This document shows positions 1 through 13,947 of a stretch of 34,995 nt of DNA, one piece after another (position 1 is the first letter of the stretch; every line of letters begins with the position of its first letter). The position numbers and the translations under genes are program-made. Below the pieces are notes generated by a model that saw only the letters and a list, made by a program, of their open reading frames with translations, ran no database searches and had not been told where the DNA came from. Origin of the DNA: Folioceros fuciformis (lineage: Eukaryota); assembly GCA_049999805.1 (NCBI GenBank), contig JBNGIO010006293.1, positions 174,171 through 209,165 of the forward strand, read 5' to 3'.

Positions 1-174
1 GTCCACATCCTCCTCCCCTTACCGCATCAACCGCTCCTCCCTCCTCATAATCACCCTACCGCCCACCAAACCCTCGTCTTCCCCCGGCACCAACCCGTCA
101 CTCCCTCACTTCCTCCTCCATTCCCCGTCGCGCACCCCTGCCCGCCCGCTCTAGGAGCGCGCCCACTCACTCAC

Positions 175-700
175 CTACCGGCTCCGACCACCGGCAGGCC
201 CTCCCTACCGAATGCCGAGCTACCTACCGGGAGCAGCTTCCTCTGGCCCCGGTAGGAGACGGGCAGACGGAGATCCTTCGCTCCTGGGCAGTGCGCACAT
301 CCGCTCCTAGCGTATCACGCCAAGCGTGGGCTACTGACGGGGCCGCACCAGCAACAGCAACACTACACGACTGCCCCGCGCCTTCCCGCATCGGCAGCTA
401 CCGCAGACAAGAGCGAGCCGCACATCAATCTGCTCGCCGCTGCCAGCCGCGTCCAGATCCGTGGCCAGCCTGCAAATCCGCCACGATCGCGTCTGGGGAT
501 TGAAGCCACCACAGAAAACGCGCTGGAGGATCCGCTTGCTTATGCCGCTTTCTGGCTGGGCAAACGACGCAGCCGTCTTCCTCCGCCGCGAATTGCGAAT
601 CGCGATTCCGCCTCCCCGGCGATACTGGCGATACTCGCAATTGGACCGGGTGCGCCGGACATGGCTATAGCAATCATGGGGGCCATGGATTTCCCGTGTT
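175..700 (-). other. Probable first (5' UTR) exon of a gene continuing leftwards out of the window
   Basis: GC-rich, with a canonical minus-strand donor AG|GTGAGT at 175/174. No recognisable protein in the ORFs. Confidence 0.25.
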
Positions 701-962
701 TCCCCATCGGACAGCCCTGGAAATTCCTGCCTTGCATCATGACTTGGCCTGGCCTGGCCGCTCGACCTGGAGTTGTGGCATGCCATCCATTCTGCACTCC
801 CCTTCTTCTGCAGTAGGTAGACTTTTTTAGGTACAGTATGTGTACCTTCACTCTCGCCTATCCCAATAAAAGGAGTTTTCACTCGCTCCGTCCTAAGCCT
901 AAGCATGGTCAAATTTTAATTTAATTTTAATTCAAAAATTCTTCTATCATCCTGCATGCTTA

Positions 963-1066
963 ACCCTAGAGTTCTTAGAAAGTTGTGTCCACATATCTTA
1001 GGCCAAATCACAACACCCTAGAGTTCTTAAGAACTTGTGTCCAAATAGCTTAGGCCAAATACACAC
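963..1066. repeat. Imperfect ~52-bp tandem duplication, possibly a TE subterminal repeat
   Basis: accctagagttctta...ttgtgtcca...ttaggccaaat starts at 963 and again at 1015. Confidence 0.85.
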
Positions 1067-1300
1067 ATCCTATATGAAGAGGGACCAAGAGAAGAAATCA
1101 CCAAGGAAGGGTATCAATAATTTATCATTGACCAACTAAAAAAATGCGAAGAGGTTGCTTGTGGAGCATAGCATCAACGAAGGTTAACTTAATCTTCTCT
1201 AACTTATAAACCGCCTCCTCCATGGGTAGGTATGATTCTAGTGCAAATCTTTTCTAGCCGTGAGAAATCCTACCATCCTCCATTCCTTCCATTTGAATTT

Positions 1301-1311
1301 GTGAGGACTCC
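1301..1311 (+). repeat. LINE target-site duplication, left copy (GTGAGGACTCC)
   Basis: Identical to 3753-3763. Confidence 0.92.
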
Positions 1312-3752
1312 AACCCAGACGGATCGCAGTTAAGGGTCTTCGCGTTTGCCGATGATACCCTTCTTTTTTGCTCGGCAGAGGAGGCTTCTTTGAACGCTCT
1401 GCTCTAGCAAGTCAAGGTCTTTGGGGAGTTGTCGGGTTGCAAGGTTAATTGGAATAAGACTCGTATGATGTGTTTACACATGGAAGGGGAGCTTCCTCTA
1501 TGCATTTGGCATATTCGGCGAGTGACACAAGGGTCCTCTCACAAATATTTGGGACTTCCCTTCCATGAGGGAGACGAGAATGGTGAGATAGGTAAGTATG
1601 TGTGCCTCAGATTCATTCGTAAAGCGGTGAGCTTGCAGCTGTTGGAGCTTAACCTTGTAGGAAGGTTGGTGGTGATTAACCATATCCTCACAGCCTCTCT
1701 ATGGTATTATTTGTTCTTGTGGGCCCCTTCCAACACGGAGGTAAAACAGTTGCAACAGGTGTTGACTTCATTCTTGTGGAAACGCGCGGGGGATAGTTCG
1801 ACTGGGTGCTCTAAGGTGGCTTGGCAACACATTATCCAGGCACGTAGTTTGGGGGGGCTTTGGGTGGATGATCCAGTTGCCAAGATGAAAGTCTTGCATG
1901 CTCAATGGGTTGTCAGGGCGGCGGATCCGGCCTTCTACCCGTGGAAGAGCTTGCTAACACAACATTTGGAGTGTACTCAAGTTGTCCCTGGGGGAAGGAG
2001 GTCTATCGACAACATCCTTGCGGATAAACCACTTCTTGATACGATAGAGTGCTCTCCACTCTTCAAGTCAATCTAGAGTAGCTACTTAGAGGTTAAGCGA
2101 TGCATTCTCCCTAGTTACCCTCTGCAAGTTGATGACGTTCTGGGTATTCCTTTGCAAGGTTTCTCGAAGTTGTGGGCTCAAGAATTTAGGGCAACGGTGT
2201 ATCAGTCACAAATCTTCGGATTGGTGTGTCGGAAAGGAGTTATCCAGCTTGGTCACCTATGGAACAGATCAGAGGCCCGTTGGAAAGAGGTGGAGGAAGT
2301 TAAGGGTGAATTTGGTTTAGGGACTAGACATGTTCGGCACATTTTCTCACAGCTGCAAGAGGGGTTAGAGGAGAAGGTTCAACGGGTGTTAAGGCAACAA
2401 CCTGCCTAGAGCAGCGAGGGTTGGCATGTGTATACCATGGATAGTAAGGGAGCCGATTCTAAGGAGGATGAACAGGAGGAAGTCCTTGAATTGGATAGGG
2501 CAGTTTGGCTTACAGGCATGGCTGAAAAAGAAGAACTGGGGTCATTCAAGGTCCTTGCACCTGAAGGGCTTTTGGAGGATAAGAGTAGGGATGACGGTGA
2601 TATCCAAAGAAGGGAACTTAGGTCCATCACAGTCCTCTCTTAGTCTGTTCGCGCAAGGCGTTGGTGCACCCAAGTCGAACGTTCTAATGGGCCACAAACC
2701 TCGGACAAGCCAGGAGTTCGATGTTGGTTTCAGCTTGCGGAAAATTGGGAGTTGGCCTTAAGACCTGATCTATACAATTGGCCTAGGAGGCCTGGTGCAA
2801 GGCGGTCAACCTTCGGTCTTTCTTCAACTTCCCAATGGTGAACCTCTACTTATGGATGGTACGAGTGCAGAAACTCAAGCAACGGCAACCAATGGCTCCC
2901 AGGCTATAGCTATTTGTGCGGAGGCAAAAGGAAGCTATCAAGCTGCTTTGGAAGTCAGTGGGAATTCCTCCCAAGGTTAGGACGACGGTTTGGTGTTTTT
3001 TTCAAGCTTGTTTGCCTAATTTGGACCGGTGGGATGGCTTGTTGGCTACTACGAGGGAAGACCAGTGTCGACTGTGCTCCTTTGGTGCCCCAAATAAAAG
3101 CCAACACACGTTCTTCTCCTGCAATTTTGCCCAAGAGATATGGAGTGAGGTGGGCAATTGGTTGCAAAGGATTCTCTCTGACGCCTGCCTCAGGATCACG
3201 AAACAAACTGCCCTTTTTGGGTTGGATGCAACCTTGGGCAAAGCTCTACTTCAGGCGCAACGGTGGGGTTTACTCTGGTCTTCTTGCCTTTTTCATCTTT
3301 GGGTCAACTGATCTTCTGTGGTCTGTGGAGGTAATGAGCCAGTCTCATCTAAGGCTCTGCTATGGCGCATCTAGGAGCATTTACTAATTGCAGCAGATAG
3401 TCTGAGGCAAGCTGATCGAAAATAGTTCAAGCGGAGTGAATGGAGGTCAACGGGTTTCCTAGTTAACCGGAATAATGAGCACTGGAACCATGCCTGTCCT
3501 TGGGGAAGGTGAGCCTCCATGATCCCAGGGCGAGTTTGAGGTTAGTCTGGATGGTCTTAGCAGTCCGCTAATATTAGGGTGATGGGGAGCATTTCCCGAG
3601 GCCTGTCCAAAGGGCTAGACACGGGGCCGGATTTTTACTCTTCTGAGTGTGGTACGCATGCTATGTAAATACGTAGGAGGGGTCCCCTTAGTACTGTAAG
3701 AGGACAACACTATTAATCAGAATCCTTTTCTTCGCGAAAAAAAAAGAAAAAA
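1312..3752 (+). mobile_element. 5'-truncated L1-type LINE (RT C-terminal half plus zf-RVT), inactivated
   Basis: RT motif FADD at 1345-1356, then SGCKVNWNKT, KYLGLP, KVAW and GGLW. Zinc knuckle CRLC-x-HTFFSC at 3066-3122. A-tail at 3737-3752. Exact TSD. Several in-frame stops and frameshifts. Confidence 0.93.
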
Positions 3753-3763
3753 GTGAGGACTCC
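3753..3763 (+). repeat. LINE target-site duplication, right copy (GTGAGGACTCC)
   Basis: Directly follows the poly(A) tail and is identical to 1301-1311. Confidence 0.92.
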
Positions 3764-4019
3764 TCGCCCTTAATCCTTCTGCAACAATTAAGAGATGTTC
3801 ACAAATACACCCAAGCAATGCTGTGGAAGTCATAGGATCGTTGCCCCCATAAACCACTACTGTCCAATTAGACCACAAGCCATGCAAGCAAGAGCTCTAG
3901 ACCACAACCCACCATTGATTTTGCAAGAGCGCGTTACTTAACACTTTGTCTAGACCAAAGAGGGCAATCTGTTCTATAACAACTATACTCTTCACAAGGA
4001 AGAGGTCTTGCAATGAAAC

Positions 4020-5061
4020 AATGAAAGCTTGGCATGCAGATGGGACATTCTTCATGATGCTCAATGGTGATTTGCATACAAAATGTCCTACCCCAATTTT
4101 ATGGGATTGGTAAATCTACTACGACTTTATACTATTTTATCTTCTCTCTGCCAACCTCTTCACTTAGATCATGCAATTGCTATGGTACTTCATAGACTTG
4201 CTGGAGGCTTATCACCTCACATCTTTGTTGACATGTATGGAGTTGGTGTGACTACTATGGTGCAATACTCTTTACATATCACAAAAGTGCTAAGCAATCC
4301 AAAGAAGTTGTTCTCACAATTTGTTGCATGGTCGTTTATTTACACATAATAAGTCATTCCTGCCAAGTTTCAAGATCTTATAGGATTATCTAACATGGTG
4401 GGCTGCATTGATGAATCACATATCAAGTTAGCAACACAACCTGACAAAAAGGATAACCCTATTGTGTATTGGTGTAGATGTGATATACATCCTATTGTCT
4501 TGCAAGGTGTATGGAATGTAGACAAAGGATTTTTGGATGTTTGTTGCACTCATTCAGAGGGGGTTCACGATGCTACCATTTTGAAGGAGAGCAGTCTTTG
4601 GAAGAGAATGATGAAAGGAGACATTTTGAGTAAGCTTATAGTCCAAGTTCAAGGCTATGCTATTACTATGTACATTGTTGGAGATAGTGCATATCCTCTT
4701 ATGCCTTTTTTGTTGAACAACAAGTGGGCAGGATGAGAAGACAAGATTCAATAGAAGCATGCACAAGGGTCGGGTAAAGATAGAGAATGCATTTGCATTG
4801 TTAAAGAAAAAGAGGAGAATTTTGAAGAACTTGAATATCAAGTTGAAATATGCATCCCATATGGTTATGACTCGTTGTGCTTTGCACAATTATTGTATCA
4901 TAGTGGATGAGCCTCAACCCATGGATATAGATGCAAATATATATCCATTACACGAGGAAGGACATATCAATATATGGCAAGGAGTAACCACTAGAACATT
5001 GTACAATGAGGCAAAGGCTAGGCAGGAAGCATTATTTGAAACTGAGAAGAGGAATTTCTAA
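4020..5061 (+). pseudogene. PIF/Harbinger (HARBI1-like, DDE_Tnp_4) transposase pseudogene
   Basis: Motifs in order: W*FAYKMSYPNF, LHRLAGG, VGCIDESHI, VLQGV, GVHDA, YIVGDSAYPL, RVKIENAFALLK, CALHNYC. Broken by stops and frameshifts. Confidence 0.92.
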
Positions 5062-5141
5062 ATGGATTTCAAGTAGGATGAGTTTGCAATTCCGACGACC
5101 CAAGCTAGAGCGTGATAGCGTAAAATATATTTTTATTAACT

Positions 5142-5400
5142 TCAATTATAAATAAATTTTTGTAGTTTTGATATTATGAGGTTCTCAAGCTTTTGCTTGC
5201 ATTCCTTTGCTGAAAGACGTTGGAGGTGGCAAATACTCCCAACTTCCTTTGCACTCTCACTACAGTGTTTGGTAGATAGATTTCCAACCTTGAGATACAC
5301 CACATGCATCTCGTGGTAAGCATCTATCGGGGTGGATGTTGCTTCATCCATCTAATTGACATAATCGGTTCTTCTAGCTTTTGCTACTTGATATTTTGTA
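5142..5400 (-). pseudogene. Trihelix-type Myb/SANT-like DNA-binding ORF (Harbinger second protein), decayed
   Basis: N*MDEATSTPIDAYHE...GNLSTKHCSESAKEV...SAKECKQKLENL matches the pattern W-x-E/D-A-T-x-x-L-I-D-A...GNL..KHW.EVA...CK.K.ENL. The TAG at 5352-5354 sits at the conserved Trp. Convergent with the transposase. Confidence 0.75.
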
Positions 5401-5840
5401 GGGGAGCCTACAACAACGTCGTATGGGTCTTCATGCTCTCCAAGATTTGAAAAGATATGGAGGCTTGCTCCATCACACTCATTGCAAATAACATAAGCCA
5501 CAAGAACTTGAGCTCGAAGCCAAGTTGAACATGGCTTATCGAACTGAAAGCCATGCACGACCGAAAGAGTTCAATATGGTGCAAGAGTTCACTATGGTGC
5601 AAGTTGGGCACTTTTGTACTCCAAATCATTAGATATTAGGGCATAATTTACTCAATAAAAACCCAAGCTTAAAAATCATGGGTGCACCCATGTGACCAAG
5701 TTCTACTAGTTATAATATCAATGGGACCTGCTACAACGATTTTGGAGATGAAGGTGTGATTTGAAGGCGCACTCTACACACAGAAAGATGAAAAAAAGAT
5801 ATGCTAAATATAACCTTTTCCTATCTTTTTACCCATTGAC

Positions 5841-7019
5841 TATGAATGTGCCTTTATGTTTGTCGTCTACGTTATGAAAGGGCTCTCAATAAACAAAGTT
5901 GTTGCACGGTTCCAATTGTCATTTAAGGGAAAGGTAGGCATGCAAAGTTCTTCGTGTTGCTTGTCGTTATGACGCTTTACTAACTTGGATTTTTTCCTAT
6001 GTGTAGCAAGTAAAGAATGTAGAAGATGTGAAAAAGACACTAGAAGCATTATAGGCTTTCATCTTGGAGGTCCATACATGGAAAGGACTCGAGAACGAGC
6101 ATTGTGCTTTGGCGTACTTGGATATGGAGGCTAGGTTGCAAACGTTCATGGTCCCACACACCAAAGCTGTTATGTAATCTCAAGTGGTGGTAAGAGATGT
6201 GTTGGATATACAACATTGATCATGGATGTCCTCAGAGGGTTTCAAAAAGGACCATATGATAGTTGTATGGAACAAGCACATTTGTCCACTATATACCAGT
6301 TTTTCAATGATATGACAATCTCATAAGTCATAAAATTCATTATCATACATGTTTACTTTATATCATGCATTCAGCTAAGAGGCTTAAGCTAGAAAAACAT
6401 AACACAAAGACAAAGTACTTTAATGAAGAAAGAAGTTCTTATATAAAAAAATTGAGATGTCTCTTGAGTTATAAATCTAACCCTTAGTCTACGAACTAAG
6501 GTATAAACTGTATTAGTGTTTCATTCCTATTGGGATAAGACCAACATGCCCAATGACTTGGGGGGTTTCAATAGAGTGATAAAAATCAGTTGGGGCACTT
6601 CATCAAGCAACACAAAGACAAAAGTCGTTATGCAACCCATTATATCGCAAGGATCCTTCAACAATGGTAGTGCTGTCATGTCTCATGATACATACTGTTG
6701 TGAGGAAATTGTTATACATGTCTCGCAATAAGTTGGTTTTAAGTCTTACCAATGCCCACTTGGTCTTATGATGAAGCTTATCACAATGTTCTCAACGGAG
6801 GGCGATTGGATTGTTGATGTTTGTTCAAGTAGTGGGTCCACAACATTGGCAACATTGTTATGTAGGTGTAGTTGCTCCATTGCCATTGATGTAAACAAGC
6901 GATGCATCGAGTTTATACCACAACACATCCATGGATATGAGGTTTTATCATATGTGAATGAGGAACTAACATACGAGCCGCATCGTCGGGAACTTCCCAA
7001 TTCTTGGCCAAAGAAGTGA
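5841..7019 (+). pseudogene. Decayed beta-class N4-cytosine/N6-adenine DNA methyltransferase-like gene (N6_N4_Mtase type)
   Basis: QCPLGLMMKLITMFSTEGDWIVDVCSSSGSTTLATLLCRCSCSIAID (6750-6890) matches QKP..L...LI..FS..GD.VLD.F.GSGTT..A....R..IGIE. Upstream in the same frame are YWDKTN (~6528) and a degenerate motif IV-like LIMDVLRGF...YD (6216-6260). Likely GT-AG intron at 5934-6006. Several stops. Confidence 0.72.
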
Positions 7020-8819
7020 GCCAACTAGAGAAAAAGACGTTTCCGTCTCCCAGATTGTGCTTTTGGGACTTAGCAAGTTGAAGGAGGAGATGGGTGGTCT
7101 TAGTGCATGCAACAATGCAAAGCAAAAAGAAGCACTAGTGCAACCCGCCTTCGAGACCACATGTAAGGGTGATACTACACCAGGCAACGCCATGGAAGAC
7201 AGATGTATTTGAGGAGAACGACATTCAGTGGCTCCAAGGCATCGGCGTAGTCCCATATAGCATATCGATCCCTTGCCCTATAGAGTCACAATGTCAAGAG
7301 GAGCTTTTCATCTGTTTGCTGTATTTGTGGGATGTTAAGTTTAAAGCAAAGGCCTTAATATTATTCGCATTGTGGGGCTCGTAATCACCTTGGAGGGGAG
7401 GAGAACGCTGGCATGCTGGTGCCCCCCTTATTTCCTCCTCATTTTAAGGTGTAGTCAACCGGAAAAAATGGAATTCACCATTAACTATTTCAAACAATAG
7501 TCTGAATATTTTCCCACCTTGCCAAGACCGATAAATGGGGCCTATTCATCCTAAAGGATGATGGACAAAAGGGTTGGTGAAGGGTATTTGGCTATCTCGA
7601 CCCTTTGTGAGAAGGCTTGTCTCTAGACTCATCAACTTTTGCTCCCTACTCTTTTGAGATCGAATCAGCCAATTGGAAACAATAGAGGTATAGAAATTAA
7701 AGAAAGACTTGGAGGTGGCATTATTGTTCCTCTCTCGTGATGGCCACTTGAAGAGATCAGGTCTAAGCGTTTATTGCCAATTTTTTGCAAGCTAGAACCA
7801 GCACAAAGCTGGATCTATGCTCGAGGGACTGCGCCTCTCTAACACTTCTTCTTGGGTGTGCCACCAACTTGTTCTTGAGGTTCTTGTGAGAATGGTAATT
7901 AGGTGCAGCATTCTGCTGCAAATATCCCCCTTATCCCTCTCGAGATTATCTAGTGTGCTAGATGGAGAAACAACTTTGAATGATGTAGCCACCCGAAGTT
8001 AAGCGAGACTTGCACCACTCTATCAAACTTCAGGGGTCTACTCCTAATTTGAGGATTGCTTCATCCACCATGGCCTCAAGAGCAACAAGCACCCCATGCT
8101 CCATCTGCGACCTCCCTTTGCTTCAGAAGCGCATGACAAACTCATGCCTGCATTCCTTCTGAAACTATGTCGATAGTCGTCTACCCTATGTAATCTCTTC
8201 TACAACCTAAGGTTTCTTTAATCTGATTTTTCTTCCAATAGTGAATACTATTAAGAAGAACATGTATATTGTGCTGACCTCTCATTCCCATCTATGGATT
8301 AATTCTAAATTTTAAACTATATTACCGTAGTTGATATATCCATTTAGCGGAAAATAATTATTTTTTACACTGGCCGAAAAACATACATATTTTTTGGGGC
8401 TTTGCCTAAATTTACATAAATCCATATAGAACTTTGCCGAAATGGGTGGATAATGTTTGCTTGTGGGCACATAACGCGTTGTGGGCGCGGCTTTGCTTGC
8501 GGGCACGGCTTTCGGGTACGTTCACTGGTGTATATGTTGTGGCTGCTCCAGTCCTCCACGAGCTTGGCATGGCGGGAGGCAGGCTCGTTGCAACTGCAAG
8601 GTGGAGCGAGCTCCTCCTTGATGGAGCTCTGCAGCTCGTAAGCTGTAGCGCCAAGCTGCAACCTACAGGGGGGTGGATAGCTCGGGCCTACCTGTAGGCT
8701 GACAGCGTCTCTAGGCTGCTCCAACAGCAACTTGGAGGCACTAATCTGCAGCTTGGAGGCCACATGTTTAATCCAGCTTAGGTTGATGACCAGCTCATTT
8801 ACTTAGATTTGCAGATGGG

Positions 8820-10880
8820 TCACAGTCCATGGACAACAAAGCCTTTAGGTGCAGCACTGAGGAGCCGAGCACTAACACCTCTAAAGGTACACGTGCTTCC
8901 ACTCTTCTCCAACTCCTGCCCTGTCTTGGAATGCCTTTCTATTGCAGCAATTTGTGCTTGCTGACGAAGGTTTTGTCTTGCAGCCCGTACTGGAGGAAGG
9001 ACTAGTGAAGAAGATGCGTCTTCCAAGCACCTGGTCATAACTTCAACAAGTTCTAGGTCATAATCTGCAAACATAACTTCAACATCATCCTCTCCGGGCA
9101 TCATCTTCCAAGGCATCATTATGTCCAGCTGAGAATAGTGGAGTTTTAGCATTCATCTCCATAGCTGCAATTTGAAAATCTGCATCGAATGCTTGCAAAA
9201 TCTTGCAAGTCTGCCACCCTTTGATAAGCATAGCATCCATAGCTTTAACGTGAATCCAAGCCTTAAGTAGCCAATCACACACAAACTTCTTCAGGTTTTT
9301 AATGCTCAAGTCTAGTGCCACTTTCTCTCCCCTTCCTAGCTGATCCATAACAATTGTGGCTATCTACTTGTTGAAATCTTCCTTGAAGGCATGTTTCAAG
9401 GGACGCTGAAGGATAACATCAACTGGTTGGAGTTTGCTAGTGCAGTTTGCGGGAACATATAGCAAGCAAATGAAAGGGTAAGCTTCCTTCATCCATGTAG
9501 TAAACTCAGCAGATGTATGAACGCTCCAGCAATCTATCAACCACACCATTTTTTGCCTTGGGCCAAGCTGAAACTGTTCCACATGCTTGTGATAATATGG
9601 GACTAACACATGCTCAACAAAATGCTTACACGTTGCTATGGTGGACCAATGTGTTTCAGAATAGGTGATGTGGAACTTAGCATCTTTGGCTTCCTTACTC
9701 AGCGAAGGAAGTGAGCTTGCTGTCTTGCCTTGTACAATAATTTGCAAGGGTAAGAGTCCTCCATCCGTTGCAGATGATACAACTGCTATGATCTGTCTTT
9801 TGTCATCCTTTCCTAACACCTTGACGTCCTTCGCTCCTTTCTTCTCCCAAGTGTGTTCGCTCAAAGGCACCAAATGTATGCCCGTTTGGTCAGAATTAAC
9901 CACTAACACTGCTGGAATTGTATAGGCCTTTACAAGGTATGCAATCCGGGACGCCATTCTGGTGCCTTGTGTTTCCCAATCCAAAGGCAACTTGGAAGCT
10001 GTAGTTGTCGTAATCCGGAATGACCAGCCAAGTTCCTTCTTCATGAAAGTCCTAACCGATTGCAAGCTGACCTTGAACCCTCCATGTTTTCCTGTTGTCA
10101 ACAGCTCTAAAGCCCTTGCCTCAACAATACCTCGGATGATAGGCTGCACTATTGGAGCAGACAGCTGTAGCCCTATTGTGTCGGATCTCAATGTAAGAAG
10201 GACATCACAAATTTCTTTTTTCAAGTCTGGATAATCCTCTAACACAGCTAGGTGGTGAAGATTACTAGCAAATCCTATCTTACGTTCAATAGCTCGATTA
10301 ACATGAGGCTTCAACTCACTAGATAAATCCTATCTTATGTTCAATAGCTCGATTAGCATGAGGCTTCAACTCACTAGATAAATCCTATCTTACGTTCAAT
10401 AGCTCGATTAGCATGAGGCTTCAACTCACTAGATAATGTGAACTAATCATTTAAGGTACCACTTGATAACTTTATATATGGACTTTCGCCTCTCACTTTT
10501 CGGTGTGCTGTCTACAAGTAATTCAAAGTTCATGAGATGTTCTTCTAAGATGTTCTTCTAGGGTCTTCATGGCTGCAACAATTGGAGGCCATAAATCATC
10601 TGTAAACCAATTAGTGTATGGACCCCGGTGTTTCCTTTTGTTCTTTCCAACATCTCTTAAAGCTAGGGCAGGACCATCCTCTTCATTAGTGCTTGGAGGC
10701 ACTAATGCTGCAAATATTGTCTTTCTTGGCCTCCGTACAAGACACTTCACAAATGATGCCTTTGGGACCATCCTTGCCAACTCCTCTTCGAACATCAAGC
10801 TCCTCTTCTCCAATTCCAACTATTTCTCCTCAGCATTGATTTTTGTAAAATTTAGAAGGGTCTGCTGGACAAGTGCCATT
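8820..10880 (-). pseudogene. pogo-like DDE_1 transposase, disrupted
   Basis: ORF 9364-10314 has NSDQTG, LIDCWSVH and VPANCTSKLQPVDV (37 residues between D2 and D3). It continues in frame past the TAG at 9364-9366. The N-terminal part (10523-10819) is separated by a tandem triplication. Confidence 0.88.
10271..10435. repeat. 3 x 55-bp near-perfect tandem repeat within the pogo transposase
   Basis: aatcctatcttacgttcaatagctcgattagcatgaggcttcaactcactagata starts at 10271, 10326 and 10381. Confidence 0.97.
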
Positions 10881-12705
10881 CTAGCACCTTCCTAATCCAA
10901 GCTGGGAATCATAGAAGAACTACCTACCTATTTAGGTGTAGATGGGTATTTGATTCAGATGTGGAACCTTAATCAAGAAGGAGATAAGTAGGTAGGTACC
11001 TACTAAATCAAGAACGTACCTAATTATAAAATTATATATATTTTTAAACATGCTTAATTATGGAAATTATTTTAGCGTTGCCTAATGGACTACCCTAAAA
11101 AAAATAATCCATTAGACAGAAGTTGCCTAATGAATATATCAACTACGGTAGACCTCTAAACACATAAAACCCCCTTCAGTCTATATTAGAGTTAATTTAA
11201 ATTACGATTTGAGTGGAAGGGAACTATGTATGTACATATACGAGGCTGCGAAACTACGGCGGATATTTAAAACTGCAGCTGGGAAGAGGAAACTGGCGAA
11301 AGGCACCACATGTGGCTCAGCGCTTGACCTATCACCGGCCGCGCTGTATGCACATCTCTGGCGTGTCATCGTCTTCTTCCCCTTCCTCCGCCAGTCTATG
11401 CCGGGCTCCCTTCTCTTTTCCTCTCCTTCTCCTCTCCTGCCGCCCCTCTTGCGAGACTGGGCTGGACCTGACCCTGCTTTGTCTCAGTCCGCGCAAGGGA
11501 CTTCCAGGGCAAGCCTCTGGCCTCCTCCTGCTTCCGCTGTCCCTGTCGTCAGCGGCTGTCATCCTATCGCCGGTGTCGTCAAGACCGCTCTGAGCTGCCC
11601 GAGGTTTCTGCATCTGCAGCCCGACGTTGCGGTAACGACCAGCGGCCCTGTGGCGGTGGCGGTGGCAGGGCTTGCCCGTAGCTGTGTGCTTGCTTGGAGC
11701 AATTGCGGGTTTGGTTTATCCCTTCCTCGGGAAGAGTAAGGCACAAGATCTGGCCCTGAGGCCCAGCGTTTTCCCCTGTCCTTGTATCCTTTGTCCCGAA
11801 GCGCCTTGGCTCGGCCGTCGGTGCTCTAGAAAGGGGCTTTCTTGTTCTCGTTAGTTCCCCCGGCTGCGTCTCATGTGACTCCATCCCGCTGATCTCCGCT
11901 GGCTGTTCCTCAAGCGGCCGGAAACGAGTCTTGGCTGCCTCGTCTGGTTCTTTTGCGTTGTGATGCACCGAACGAAACCCTTGCCGTAGCATCATCCTTC
12001 CTCTAGGGTTGTGTCCTAGACGGCGAGTTTCGGATCTGGTCTGGAGCCAGAGGGACTCTTTCTTGTCGGATTGCCTCTTCACGGTCTGTATCAGGTTCTG
12101 CATTGCGTGATCGAAGAGAACGGGCCATCATCAAGGGAGCGGTGGTTCATGCAGTACGGTTTCCGTGCACTCTTGCTGTACTCCCTCGACGCTGCAGGTA
12201 GTCGATTTGAACAGGTGGCCGGGTTCGGCGGGATCACCGTATGTGGTGTGCTGAGTATGTGTGACGGGTTTCCCGGGCGCAGTCCCTTGAGTCACTAATC
12301 CTGTGGGACTCTTGCACTGAAAGGCGGTCGGTGCTCGAACGATTGGAGAGGCTGCCTTCACCTTGCAGTACGAATGTTAGGTCAAGAAGCCACTTCACTA
12401 GCAAACTTTTGCCAAGGTCGAAACCTGAGCTAGATGGGCCAAGTTGTCGAAGTCCCTCGAGCTTGTCGAATGCAAAAGCGCATCCACGCTGTAGCAACAC
12501 GGGATCGCCTGCAAATCCTTAGCTCCCCTGCTGATTAGAGTGTGGTCGAATTCCGGGACGTATCTCACGAAATCTCCTCATTGCACAAACTGCATCAGTG
12601 CAGCTTGAATCTGGTGTCATCAAATGTGTGGCTGAAGCGACATTCTTCTGGGGAATTGGTTCGGCTGGTGAATACACTTGCTTTCAGCGTGCTGGTACAG
12701 CTGAA

Positions 12706-13947
12706 ATGGACGATTTTGATCTTCCTCCAGGATTTGGAGGCCCCTCTTCAGTACGTTCCCACCCTGCCCCTGTAGCACCAGCTCTCCTACAGACCAGGAC
12801 TAAGAGGCCAAGGCCGAGGAAGGTGACATGGGCAAAAGATGAAAAGCTTTTCGAAGTTCGATTGTTTGCGGCGGAGGATGCTCCATATTTGGCAGGTGTA
12901 GGATACCAAGACAGGTTGAAGGCTAAGATGTCGAAGTTCATGCATGCAGCTGATCCTGTTGCTAGGGGCGACCTTCCTCCTGGTTTTGCATATGGACGCG
13001 AAAAGCAGGCACCCAAGAGGATGGTTGATGCAGCTGCAATTGCAGCAGTTGTTCCGAAGGTGGCTTGGCGGCGTCCTCCATTTGTGAGAATGAACGAGTC
13101 ATGGGGAATGATGGCTGGAGAAGCAAGTGAAGAGGTGAAGACTCAGCAAGATCGACAAGTTAGGCTTTTGGAGGCTGTTTATCCACGATCGTCCGCAATT
13201 CCGCATAGCCCAGCTGAGCCTCAGGAGCTTCCGCAGGACATCCAGGATGAGTATATCCCACAAATTCCCCTGGTGCCTGTGGAAGAGGATGCGGCCGAGC
13301 AAGATGAGGCAGCAAGGTTTCCGACGCCGCGGATCGTGAATAATGACGTTGGACGCCTGGGTGTCACCCAGGCTCCTGTTCCTGTGAATGGCACAACTAG
13401 CTATGCTGTTAGTAACGGCATGTTTGGGCAACAACCACCTGGAGCGTGGTTGCCACGGCCTGTGATGCCTCAAGATACGAGCAGAGGGATCGGCTTCAGG
13501 GGGACACCGCCAAACGCTGGCAGTATGGTGTTTCCTCCTGTGTCAGGTAGTATATCTTCAAGTCCCTTGTCGTCCTCCCAGCAAAGCACAGCACAAGGGG
13601 TCCCGAATGCTGCATCGGTTGTCGCTGAGGCTGTTGAGAAGTCACGAGAGGCTGGCAGCCAGATTGACAGTGAGCTTCTTCTGAACATTCTTACCAATCC
13701 TTCATTAATCCAAGCACTCCTAGGCAAGAATGGCGGTGCTGAAGGTCTAAATTTGTCTCAAACAGTGGGTGCTGGTGCACCCCCCTTGCCACACTGTGTT
13801 GGGGGTACTAAGCCTCAGGATAACAGGGCTGATTTTCAGCATTCTGCACCTGCACCTGCATTTGTCCAGCATCCATCTCTACCCCCTCTTGCATATCCTA
13901 CATCGACACAAATGCAGGGTGGGCATGTTTCCACAAGTTGGAGGTGA
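12706..13947 (+). CDS. Plant C3H6-like / PNUTS-like putative PP1 regulatory protein (RVxW motif), apparently a single coding exon
   Basis: RKVTWAKDEKLFEVRLFAAEDAP, QDRLKAK, DLPPGF (twice), GEASEEVKTQQDRQVRLLEAVYPRSSAIPHSP, IPQIPLVPVEE and IDSELLLNILTNP resemble Arabidopsis zinc finger CCCH protein 6-type proteins. First ATG at 12706. Probable 5' UTR intron from 11736. Confidence 0.8.
   Translation: MDDFDLPPGFGGPSSVRSHPAPVAPALLQTRTKRPRPRKVTWAKDEKLFEVRLFAAEDAPYLAGVGYQDRLKAKMSKFMHAADPVARGDLPPGFAYGREKQAPKRMVDAAAIAAVVPKVAWRRPPFVRMNESWGMMAGEASEEVKTQQDRQVRLLEAVYPRSSAIPHSPAEPQELPQDIQDEYIPQIPLVPVEEDAAEQDEAARFPTPRIVNNDVGRLGVTQAPVPVNGTTSYAVSNGMFGQQPPGAWLPRPVMPQDTSRGIGFRGTPPNAGSMVFPPVSGSISSSPLSSSQQSTAQGVPNAASVVAEAVEKSREAGSQIDSELLLNILTNPSLIQALLGKNGGAEGLNLSQTVGAGAPPLPHCVGGTKPQDNRADFQHSAPAPAFVQHPSLPPLAYPTSTQMQGGHVSTSWR

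Follow-up and report, generated by a model that had tools for sequence, protein, structure and literature searches.

DNA transposons that carry a gene for a DNA-modifying enzyme beside their transposase form a cargo class that was recognised recently, in algae. The Sola1-1_Ec32 element of Ectocarpus encodes a 1104-amino-acid (aa) accessory protein that joins a ParB-like part to a DNA methyltransferase (PMC12477816), and in red algae the proteins PAG2 (PF01555 plus SET) and PAG3 (ParB-like plus 2-oxoglutarate (2OG) oxygenase) are described as moving among Plavaka, Mutator, Zisupton and Fanzor elements (10.1101/2025.02.11.637652). The latter source also mentions HarbingerS, a Harbinger group with SET-domain cargo, and the former proposes that such cargo writes N6-methyladenine (6mA) or N4-methylcytosine (4mC) on the DNA of its own element. 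Transposon-borne ParB-methyltransferase cargo is already known from red, brown and green algae. DN4MT1 (10.1101/2021.02.12.428880) and N4CMT (PMC8885841) are presented as domesticated single genes, and no land-plant transposon clade is among those listed in Section 8 of PMC4738411. Our literature search, in which supplementary cargo lists were not covered, returned no Harbinger with a PF01555 gene and no land-plant case among the matches listed. Here we analyse a 34,995-nucleotide (nt) stretch of Folioceros fuciformis DNA (contig JBNGIO010006293.1, positions 174,171 to 209,165; this whole stretch is hereafter termed the window), in which a PIF/Harbinger transposase relic and the relic of a beta-class amino-methyltransferase (PF01555) share one gap in an old long interspersed nuclear element (LINE), and we weigh whether the transposon carried the methyltransferase gene. 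An initial annotation made from the letters of this DNA had treated bacterial-derived N4C methyltransferases as rare in eukaryotes, a statement overtaken by the algal transposon-borne proteins with ParB-like and DNA-methyltransferase parts now in print (PMC12477816; 10.1101/2025.02.11.637652).

The methyltransferase relic (METHYLTRANSFERASE) retains three motif blocks, all of them in one frame and at the positions originally given: LIMDVLRGF at 6216-6242, which includes the motif IV variant DVLRG (6225-6239), WDK at 6531-6539, and QCP with motif I (VDVCSSSGST) at 6750-6842. The beta order that had been proposed, with motif IV N-terminal to motif I, was also borne out, DVLRG preceding VDVCSSSGST (~6813-6842) in the window as the corresponding motifs do in the relatives. 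A read-through of 6135-7016, with 7 stops written as X and no frameshift, was compared by HMMER with 1.84 billion protein representatives and retrieved 11 proteins at E<=1e-3, with P0002 at the top (E 1.1e-9). P0012, the eleventh, is a repetitive protein whose match was broken into 5 short stretches; it was dropped, and all 10 homologues kept pass the PF01555 cut-off with 30-66 bits. The window protein itself stays below that cut-off (26.7 bits), at 20.8 bits for the whole read-through and at 22.7 bits (E 1.1e-4, profile positions 164-217 only) for the C-terminal open reading frame (ORF) 6732-7016, and the two N-terminal ORFs have no Pfam matches. To the alignment of these homologues the window protein was aligned by hhalign with a probability of 98.9% and E 1.3e-17 over 219 columns (residues 21-279). 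This span takes in all three motif blocks as homologous positions: YTTLIMDVLRGF in the window is aligned to YSLLVLDLPRGL in the family, WDKTNM to WHKTNV, and SYQCPLGLMMKLITMFSTEGDWIVDVCSSSGST to SPYQKPVRLMKRLISLFSEEGDWVIDGCSGSGST. Taken together, the best relative, the hhalign result and the PF01555 membership of the homologues uphold the initial assignment to the bacterial-type amino-methyltransferases and support descent of the ORF from a beta-class enzyme (PF01555) of bacterial or phage type.

Comparison with the family also clarified the catalytic motifs. The motif IV consensus is D-[LV]-P-R-G, and the DVLRG of the window is one C-to-T change away from D-V-P-R-G; family motif I reads YQKP...DxCSGSGST with invariant glycines, and the window has YQCP...DVCSSSGST, the loss of one G and of the K fitting decay. 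Single-transition repairs had been suggested at three places, and those to DVP (CTC from CCC) and SGSG (AGT from GGT) agree with the family, whereas QRP does not, the family having QKP. Of the forms between which a consensus had been meant to decide (DPPY, SPPY or a D-x-P variant), the closest relatives have D-L-P-R. Neither the window (D-V-L-R) nor P0002, P0003 and P0009 (D-L-P-R) show the (D/S/N)-P-P-(Y/F/W) form of motif IV.

An AlphaFold model was made of P0002, not of the window protein, from a 28-row alignment (mean pLDDT 74.4). Its top PDB matches by Foldseek were all beta-class DNA methyltransferases, namely M1.HpyAVI, CcrM, M.MboIIA, bdelloid N4CMT, M.RsrI and M.PvuII (E 3e-11 to 5e-9), and the family profile retrieves beta-class enzymes by sequence as well (E 1e-10 to 3e-7). 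The Atlas neighbours of P0002 are phage PF01555 clusters. Family placement cannot tell N6A from N4C specificity. That there is no methyltransferase here and the likeness to a generic Rossmann loop binding S-adenosylmethionine (SAM) is due to chance is hardly credible. The window fragment does score 22.7 against the 26.7 bits of the cut-off, and phmmer against the PDB and a search of NCBIfam gave only weak generic SAM-loop matches to NSUN, RsmB and CbiT. The idea is nevertheless refuted by the E-value of the best match among 1.84 billion proteins, by the PF01555 homologues and by the hhalign alignment, whose columns include the N-terminal motif IV block. A protein search with the 95-aa methyltransferase piece, restricted to longer lengths, gave no match. 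An internal duplication was considered as the source of two VFHS-like strings, and none was found.

Within the methyltransferase frame, an AT-rich stretch at 6315-6495 (GC 0.25-0.30) contains six of the seven stops and is associated with GT at 6328-6329 and AG at 6515-6516. The hhalign alignment continues straight across it, the relatives that were read (P0002 and its group, and the ORFs of metagenome loci L001 and L003-L005) are single uninterrupted ORFs, and excision of the stretch as an intron would take out part of a strand together with a helix, both well modelled in P0002. A processed retrocopy was rejected, no A-run being present at the right end of the block. With 7 stops, one glycine gone from motif I and the proline gone from motif IV, the window copy is dead and has no present function.

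The transposase is a clear member of the PIF/Harbinger superfamily, as the initial annotation had recognised. Pfam DDE_Tnp_4 is matched at 4717-5058 (E 5.8e-6, 26.5 bits for a cut-off of 24.8) and at 4353-4733 (E 2.8e-3), and Plant_tran is matched weakly by both pieces. A read-through of 4026-4733 in which 3 stops were read as X retrieved 8 proteins, every one with PF04827 and PF13359, the best at E 1.6e-44 with 41% identity and 97% coverage. Three in-frame stops and a +1 frameshift near 4717-4736 have broken the frame, in which the D, D and E positions are still legible (GCIDESHI, VGDSAYPL, RVKIENAF). The BLASTP alignment with the 382-aa protein P0056 opens at residue 60 of the latter (window position 4050), indicating that about 59 N-terminal codons, the promoter and the left end of the element have been lost. 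ORF 5142-5570 on the minus strand sits where the second, Myb-like gene of a Harbinger would be, and a tail-to-tail second ORF is the arrangement reported for autonomous Harbingers in Ectocarpus (PMC12477816). The trihelix Myb/SANT identity initially given to this ORF found no backing: there was no Pfam match at E<=10, no meaningful PDB match and no Atlas support, and only the tail-to-tail position fits.

Transposase, minus-strand ORF and methyltransferase lie together in a gap of an old minus-strand LINE, termed LINE(-), in which the Harbinger is the sole transposase. The pieces of LINE(-) are colinear with a plus-strand copy of the same family, LINE(+), window positions 7983-7627 corresponding to 2542-2897, 4013-3768 to 3162-3407 and 1297-1214 to 3426-3509. 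Two nested insertions have thus split one old LINE: the Harbinger/methyltransferase block and the younger LINE(+), which runs in the opposite orientation. At the two edges of LINE(+) the LINE coordinates stand at 3407 and 3426, so that hardly any are missing there, and the neat filling of this second gap by LINE(+) validates the gap reasoning. For the first gap, the 263 nt from 7627 to 7364 compare with 265 missing LINE positions, which together with the colinearity of the pieces indicates that the block is a single interruption at about one LINE position, ending at ~7360. Colinear extrapolation of LINE(-) puts the right junction near 7362, and a paralogous contig matches the window over 6745-7364 and is unlike it beyond 7364. 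To the right of the methyltransferase, GGCC, which occurs only 3 times in 3700-7700, stands at 7351-7354 and is followed by TTA at 7355-7357. We take the ends of mPing and Pong to start with GGCC and to duplicate TTA or TAA, and on that assumption this string is a possible Harbinger-type terminus with its target-site copy.

The whole block also bears one decay signature. GC content is 0.375-0.40 and the observed/expected ratio (o/e) of CWG is 0.20-0.46 in the transposase, the minus-strand ORF, the spacer and the methyltransferase, compared with CWG o/e of 0.64-0.92 in the LINEs and above 1 in genes. Such depletion of CG and CWG is as expected after long cytosine methylation and deamination. 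The studied region as a whole is low in GC, 0.38 against 0.43-0.58 around it.

Relatives of the methyltransferase were collected by a profile search of 5.8 billion proteins, which gave 45 matches. Eighteen of these (P0010, P0013-P0025, P0027, P0028, P0033 and P0047) come from the liverwort Riccia sorocarpa, where they are encoded on 7 chromosome-sized contigs and annotated as hypothetical or as DNA methylase N-4/N-6 domain. Several are truncated or fused variants of one long protein consisting of a ParB-like part and a D-V-P-Y-G methyltransferase. The multicopy state, the spread over contigs and the truncated and fused variants make up the picture of a transposon gene, and the Riccia set looks like a liverwort transposon gene family that has gone unrecognised; methylases, this family and Harbinger go unmentioned in the Riccia genome paper. 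A metagenome scan yielded 27 loci, nine of which were read as eukaryote-like members (L001-L006, L018, L019 and L022), and no relative was found on viral contigs. In the eukaryote-like loci and in Riccia a ParB-like part with a GGNH core precedes the methyltransferase, the support for its ParB-like nature being weak (HTH_ParB E 8.6e-4; hhalign to bacterial ParBc-methyltransferase fusions E 0.0076, probability 5%). L019, a 3.6-kb metagenome contig, holds two diverged DPPF-type methyltransferase copies in opposite orientation, at 1776-2390 (+) and 3082-3564 (-), and L003 and L005 have an extra upstream ORF with no Pfam match.

In L001, L004 and L006, the three contigs having at least 900 nt downstream, the methyltransferase gene stands tail to tail with a DUF7869 ORF (Table 1). 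The three are metagenome contigs of one sample, and in L006 the 672-aa ORF matches DUF7869 with a Pfam E of 8.9e-50. A D...D...E-like pattern can be seen by eye (DGMDQ, LDNTSRENKN, GHTHDQID) and phmmer found no PDB matches for the DUF7869 ORF; this ORF probably encodes the transposase of a cargo-carrying DNA transposon not yet described. A quick maximum-likelihood tree split 22 eukaryote-like rows from 24 other PF01555 matches with SH-aLRT support of 99; among the 24 are some with ParBc and one labelled bacterial by its source. The window falls in a group of 20 rows, next to clade A (P0002, P0003, P0004, P0005 and P0009), on a long branch. Motif IV follows the clades, being DPPF in L018, L019 and L022, D-[IV]-P-Y-G in the metagenome and Riccia forms, and D-L-P-R-G in the three clade A members that hold the region (P0002, P0003 and P0009). 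Clade A has no ParB part, and P0002, P0003 and P0009 have no SET part either. When 7 ParB-like ORFs and proteins were compared with the window by tblastn, nothing appeared below E 0.09, and no DUF7869 piece was found. Judged by these relatives, the methyltransferase family looks transposon-borne.

On the reading that we favour, ~4036 to ~7360 would be the relic of one DNA-transposon insertion into the older LINE, the element being a PIF/Harbinger with three genes: the plus-strand transposase, a presumed Myb-like partner on the minus strand, and a beta-class amino-methyltransferase as cargo. We put the carriage of the methyltransferase by this Harbinger at an even chance, and we infer joint travel between one pair of Harbinger ends, as well as any enzymatic activity. 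The proposal of the initial annotation that the Harbinger carries the enzyme stands as far as the single LINE gap and the common decay signature go, and falls short in that no pair of terminal inverted repeats (TIRs) and target-site duplications (TSDs) was found and that copies span only ~5885-7364. Several observations weigh against the favoured reading. The left end of the element is missing and TTA is seen at the right junction only; deletion of the left end makes the TSD pair unreadable and an absence of TIRs expected, and TIRs were indeed undetectable for any pairing of ends, 19%, 17% and 3% of shuffles reaching the observed score. The GGCC/TTA cue is short, post hoc and dependent on the assumed mPing and Pong ends. 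The junction estimate depends on tblastx matches of 35-51%, 7364-7627 has no detectable LINE similarity, and DNA-level alignment of the LINE copies is too diverged for breakpoints; as Pfam found no zf-RVT in the LINE(-) pieces adjoining the block and BLASTP of 7261-7770 (-) against the LINE(+) zf-RVT ORF was not significant, the right junction is placed only within about 7300-7627. Other genomic copies (at least 80% identity) cover 5885-6316 and 6745-7364, one record covering 5885-6149 and 6207-6316, and depth over 5005-5805 is about single copy, a pattern equally compatible with a separate 1.5-kb repeat and with deletion derivatives. The Myb identity of ORF 5142-5570 is without support in Pfam, the PDB and Atlas. 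Linkage with Harbinger genes, which had been anticipated for the relatives, was not observed: by tblastn (E<=1) the 27 metagenome loci yielded no relative of either this transposase or the minus-strand ORF, three pair with DUF7869 instead, and the contigs of the 8 transposase relatives have no length in common with those of the methyltransferase relatives, the last being a weak test.

A rival view is that two relics adjoin, a two-gene Harbinger ending at ~5700-5885 and an independent methyltransferase repeat of ~1.5 kb (~5885-7360), the repeat stemming from a different transposon family, as a fragment or a non-autonomous derivative, and having inserted at the Harbinger end or within it. We consider this a serious possibility, though one with less than an even chance. 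The genomic-copy matches start at ~5885 and stop at ~7364, and no other copy with 80% identity or more was seen for the minus-strand ORF region; relatives elsewhere accompany a DUF7869 DDE-like gene and not a Harbinger; red-algal cargo is reported to move between transposon families (10.1101/2025.02.11.637652); and the tail at 7020-7450 has a GC content of 0.47 against 0.38 in the rest of the block. Two relics would however require that a pair of insertions hit one LINE position to within ~30 nt, or that one was nested in the other and shares the right end of the block, and the 1.5-kb unit would be without a transposase and without detectable TIRs of its own. Moreover, the decay signature is identical on either side of 5885. 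By comparison, a host pseudogene, for instance of a domesticated DN4MT1-like enzyme, that merely adjoins the transposon is very improbable. Domestication of PF01555 has occurred in a liverwort (10.1101/2021.02.12.428880) and in rotifers (PMC8885841), but here the gene is part of a block inserted into a LINE and has diverged extra genomic copies, and its relatives are multicopy in Riccia and adjoin transposase-like genes.

If the Harbinger did carry the gene, the locus would share with the algal ParB-methyltransferase systems a PF01555 gene as non-transposase cargo of cut-and-paste transposons. The sister clades of the window gene (Riccia; L001-L005, L018, L019 and L022) have a ParB-like N-terminal GGNH part and, in the metagenome, genes that adjoin a DDE-like gene. 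Unlike the algal cargo, the window gene and P0002, P0003 and P0009 are without ParB or SET, the closest clade has D-L-P-R-G and no DPPY-type motif, the neighbouring transposase is a Harbinger and the host is land-plant-like; this comparison draws on the published descriptions of the algal proteins. With PIF/Harbinger elements (DDE_Tnp_4 PF13359, Plant_tran PF04827) the locus has in common its transposase and the tail-to-tail second ORF, and it differs from them by the third gene in the block and by being truncated and dead, with TIRs and TSD pair unreadable. The bacterial beta-class enzymes (M.RsrI, M1.HpyAVI, CcrM and M.MboIIA, which are N6A, and M.PvuII, which is N4C) resemble the family in the permuted motif order and in the fold modelled for P0002. 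They differ in that identity is 14-19%, that the genes of the family are eukaryotic and multicopy, and that motif IV is D-[LV]-P-R in the window clade, D-[IV]-P-Y in sister clades and DPPF in one clade. MpDN4MT1a/b and bdelloid N4CMT belong to the same Pfam family, the N4CMT structure 8s9o being matched at Foldseek E 3e-10 and profile E 8e-7; N4CMT nevertheless ranks no closer than the bacterial enzymes and has a chromodomain. DN4MT1 was absent from the matches of both protein searches (1.84 billion representatives and 5.8 billion proteins).

By analogy with the algal ParB-methyltransferase proteins, the cargo protein of a live copy would bind S-adenosylmethionine and go on to mark DNA, or at the least attach to it, to the benefit of the element. 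The natural reading of the ParB-fused clades, whose motif IV is D-x-P-Y or DPPF, would be that their proteins actively write 6mA or 4mC on the DNA of the element itself. In amino-methyltransferases motif IV contributes an aromatic residue that stacks against the flipped base, and this residue is replaced by arginine in every member of the D-L-P-R clade that holds the region, so that in this clade changed chemistry or non-catalytic binding would be as likely as methyl transfer. The fuller scenario, that a land-plant PIF/Harbinger lineage gained a ParB-less beta-class amino-methyltransferase with a conserved D-L-P-R loop, whose altered activity or DNA- and SAM-binding role marks or shields the DNA of the element, strikes us as rather unlikely.

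DNA transposons with a DNA-modifying enzyme of their own bear on the escape from, or the exploitation of, host silencing and on the origin of eukaryotic 4mC and 6mA writers. The present analysis adds multicopy relatives in a liverwort genome and a ParB-less clade with an altered catalytic loop, found in a Harbinger-containing insertion of a plant-like genome. Were both linkage and activity shown, land plants and Harbingers would each gain a first example of such cargo. On the fuller scenario, the locus together with the Riccia relatives would extend the algal class of self-modifying transposons to land plants and to a new superfamily, and it would point to a plausible reservoir for the domestication of enzymes such as DN4MT1. 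The locus being a dead relic, its value is that of a pointer to the family.

Table 1. Features of the block, of the LINE that it interrupts and of three metagenome loci (window positions, except for L001, L004 and L006, where positions are those of the contig).
Feature	Position	Strand	Evidence or remark
LINE(-) 3' piece	1214..1297	-	tblastx: LINE(+) 3426-3509 vs 1297-1214, E 7.8e-8; left of nested younger LINE
LINE(+), younger, nested in LINE(-)	1298..3767, bounds approximate	+	zf-RVT 2910-3308, Pfam E 4.8e-10; 3'-terminal A-run
LINE(-) middle piece, abutting truncated Harbinger	3768..4035	-	tblastx: LINE(+) 3162-3407 vs 4013-3768, 51% over 82 aa
PIF/Harbinger DDE transposase relic	4050..5061	+	Pfam, BLASTP
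ORF facing transposase tail to tail, one in-frame stop	5142..5570	-	position only
Spacer between minus-strand ORF and methyltransferase gene	5701..6134	.	similarity to other genomic copies from ~5885
Beta-class (PF01555) amino-methyltransferase relic	6135..7019	+	7 in-frame stops, no frameshift
AT-rich stretch in methyltransferase frame	6315..6495	+	6 of 7 stops; intron or decayed coding sequence
Tail of inserted block	7020..7364	.	GGCC 7351-7354, then TTA 7355-7357
LINE(-) upstream piece, right of inserted block	7627..7983	-	tblastx: LINE(+) 2542-2811 vs 7983-7714, 42% over 90 aa; 2814-2897 vs 7710-7627
L001 methyltransferase gene	492..1622	+	
L001 DUF7869 ORF	1945..3081	-	
L004 methyltransferase gene	1276..2646	+	
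L004 DUF7869 ORF	2994..3539	-	
L006 methyltransferase gene	71..271	+	
L006 DUF7869 ORF	966..2981	-	

The window as a whole reads as nuclear, plant-like DNA, with ABC-transporter and protein-kinase exons (our reading of the ORF translations) and, by Pfam, a LINE with zf-RVT and a DDE_1 transposase. Summed contig depth is high across 1267-3936, the LINE(+) region, and a second tblastx high-scoring segment pair of the LINE(-) middle piece extends to 4035. The DDE_1 domain (pogo/Tigger-type, E 3.8e-8) lies in an uninterrupted 321-aa ORF at 9367-10329 (-), which apparently belongs to a different, younger DNA transposon 2 kb rightward of the block. Contigs of run X4, guessed to be RNA, occur in 14 of 30 bins, mostly LINE, the lack of cover elsewhere being uninformative. 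An open frame of 470 aa without a stop, rich in proline, alanine and serine, is present at 12535-13947 (+). Finally, run X3 differs from window positions 1000-9000 almost solely by C>T (456 places) and G>A (346 places), and through this dominance looks bisulfite-converted, so that it may hold the 5-methylcytosine state of the locus.

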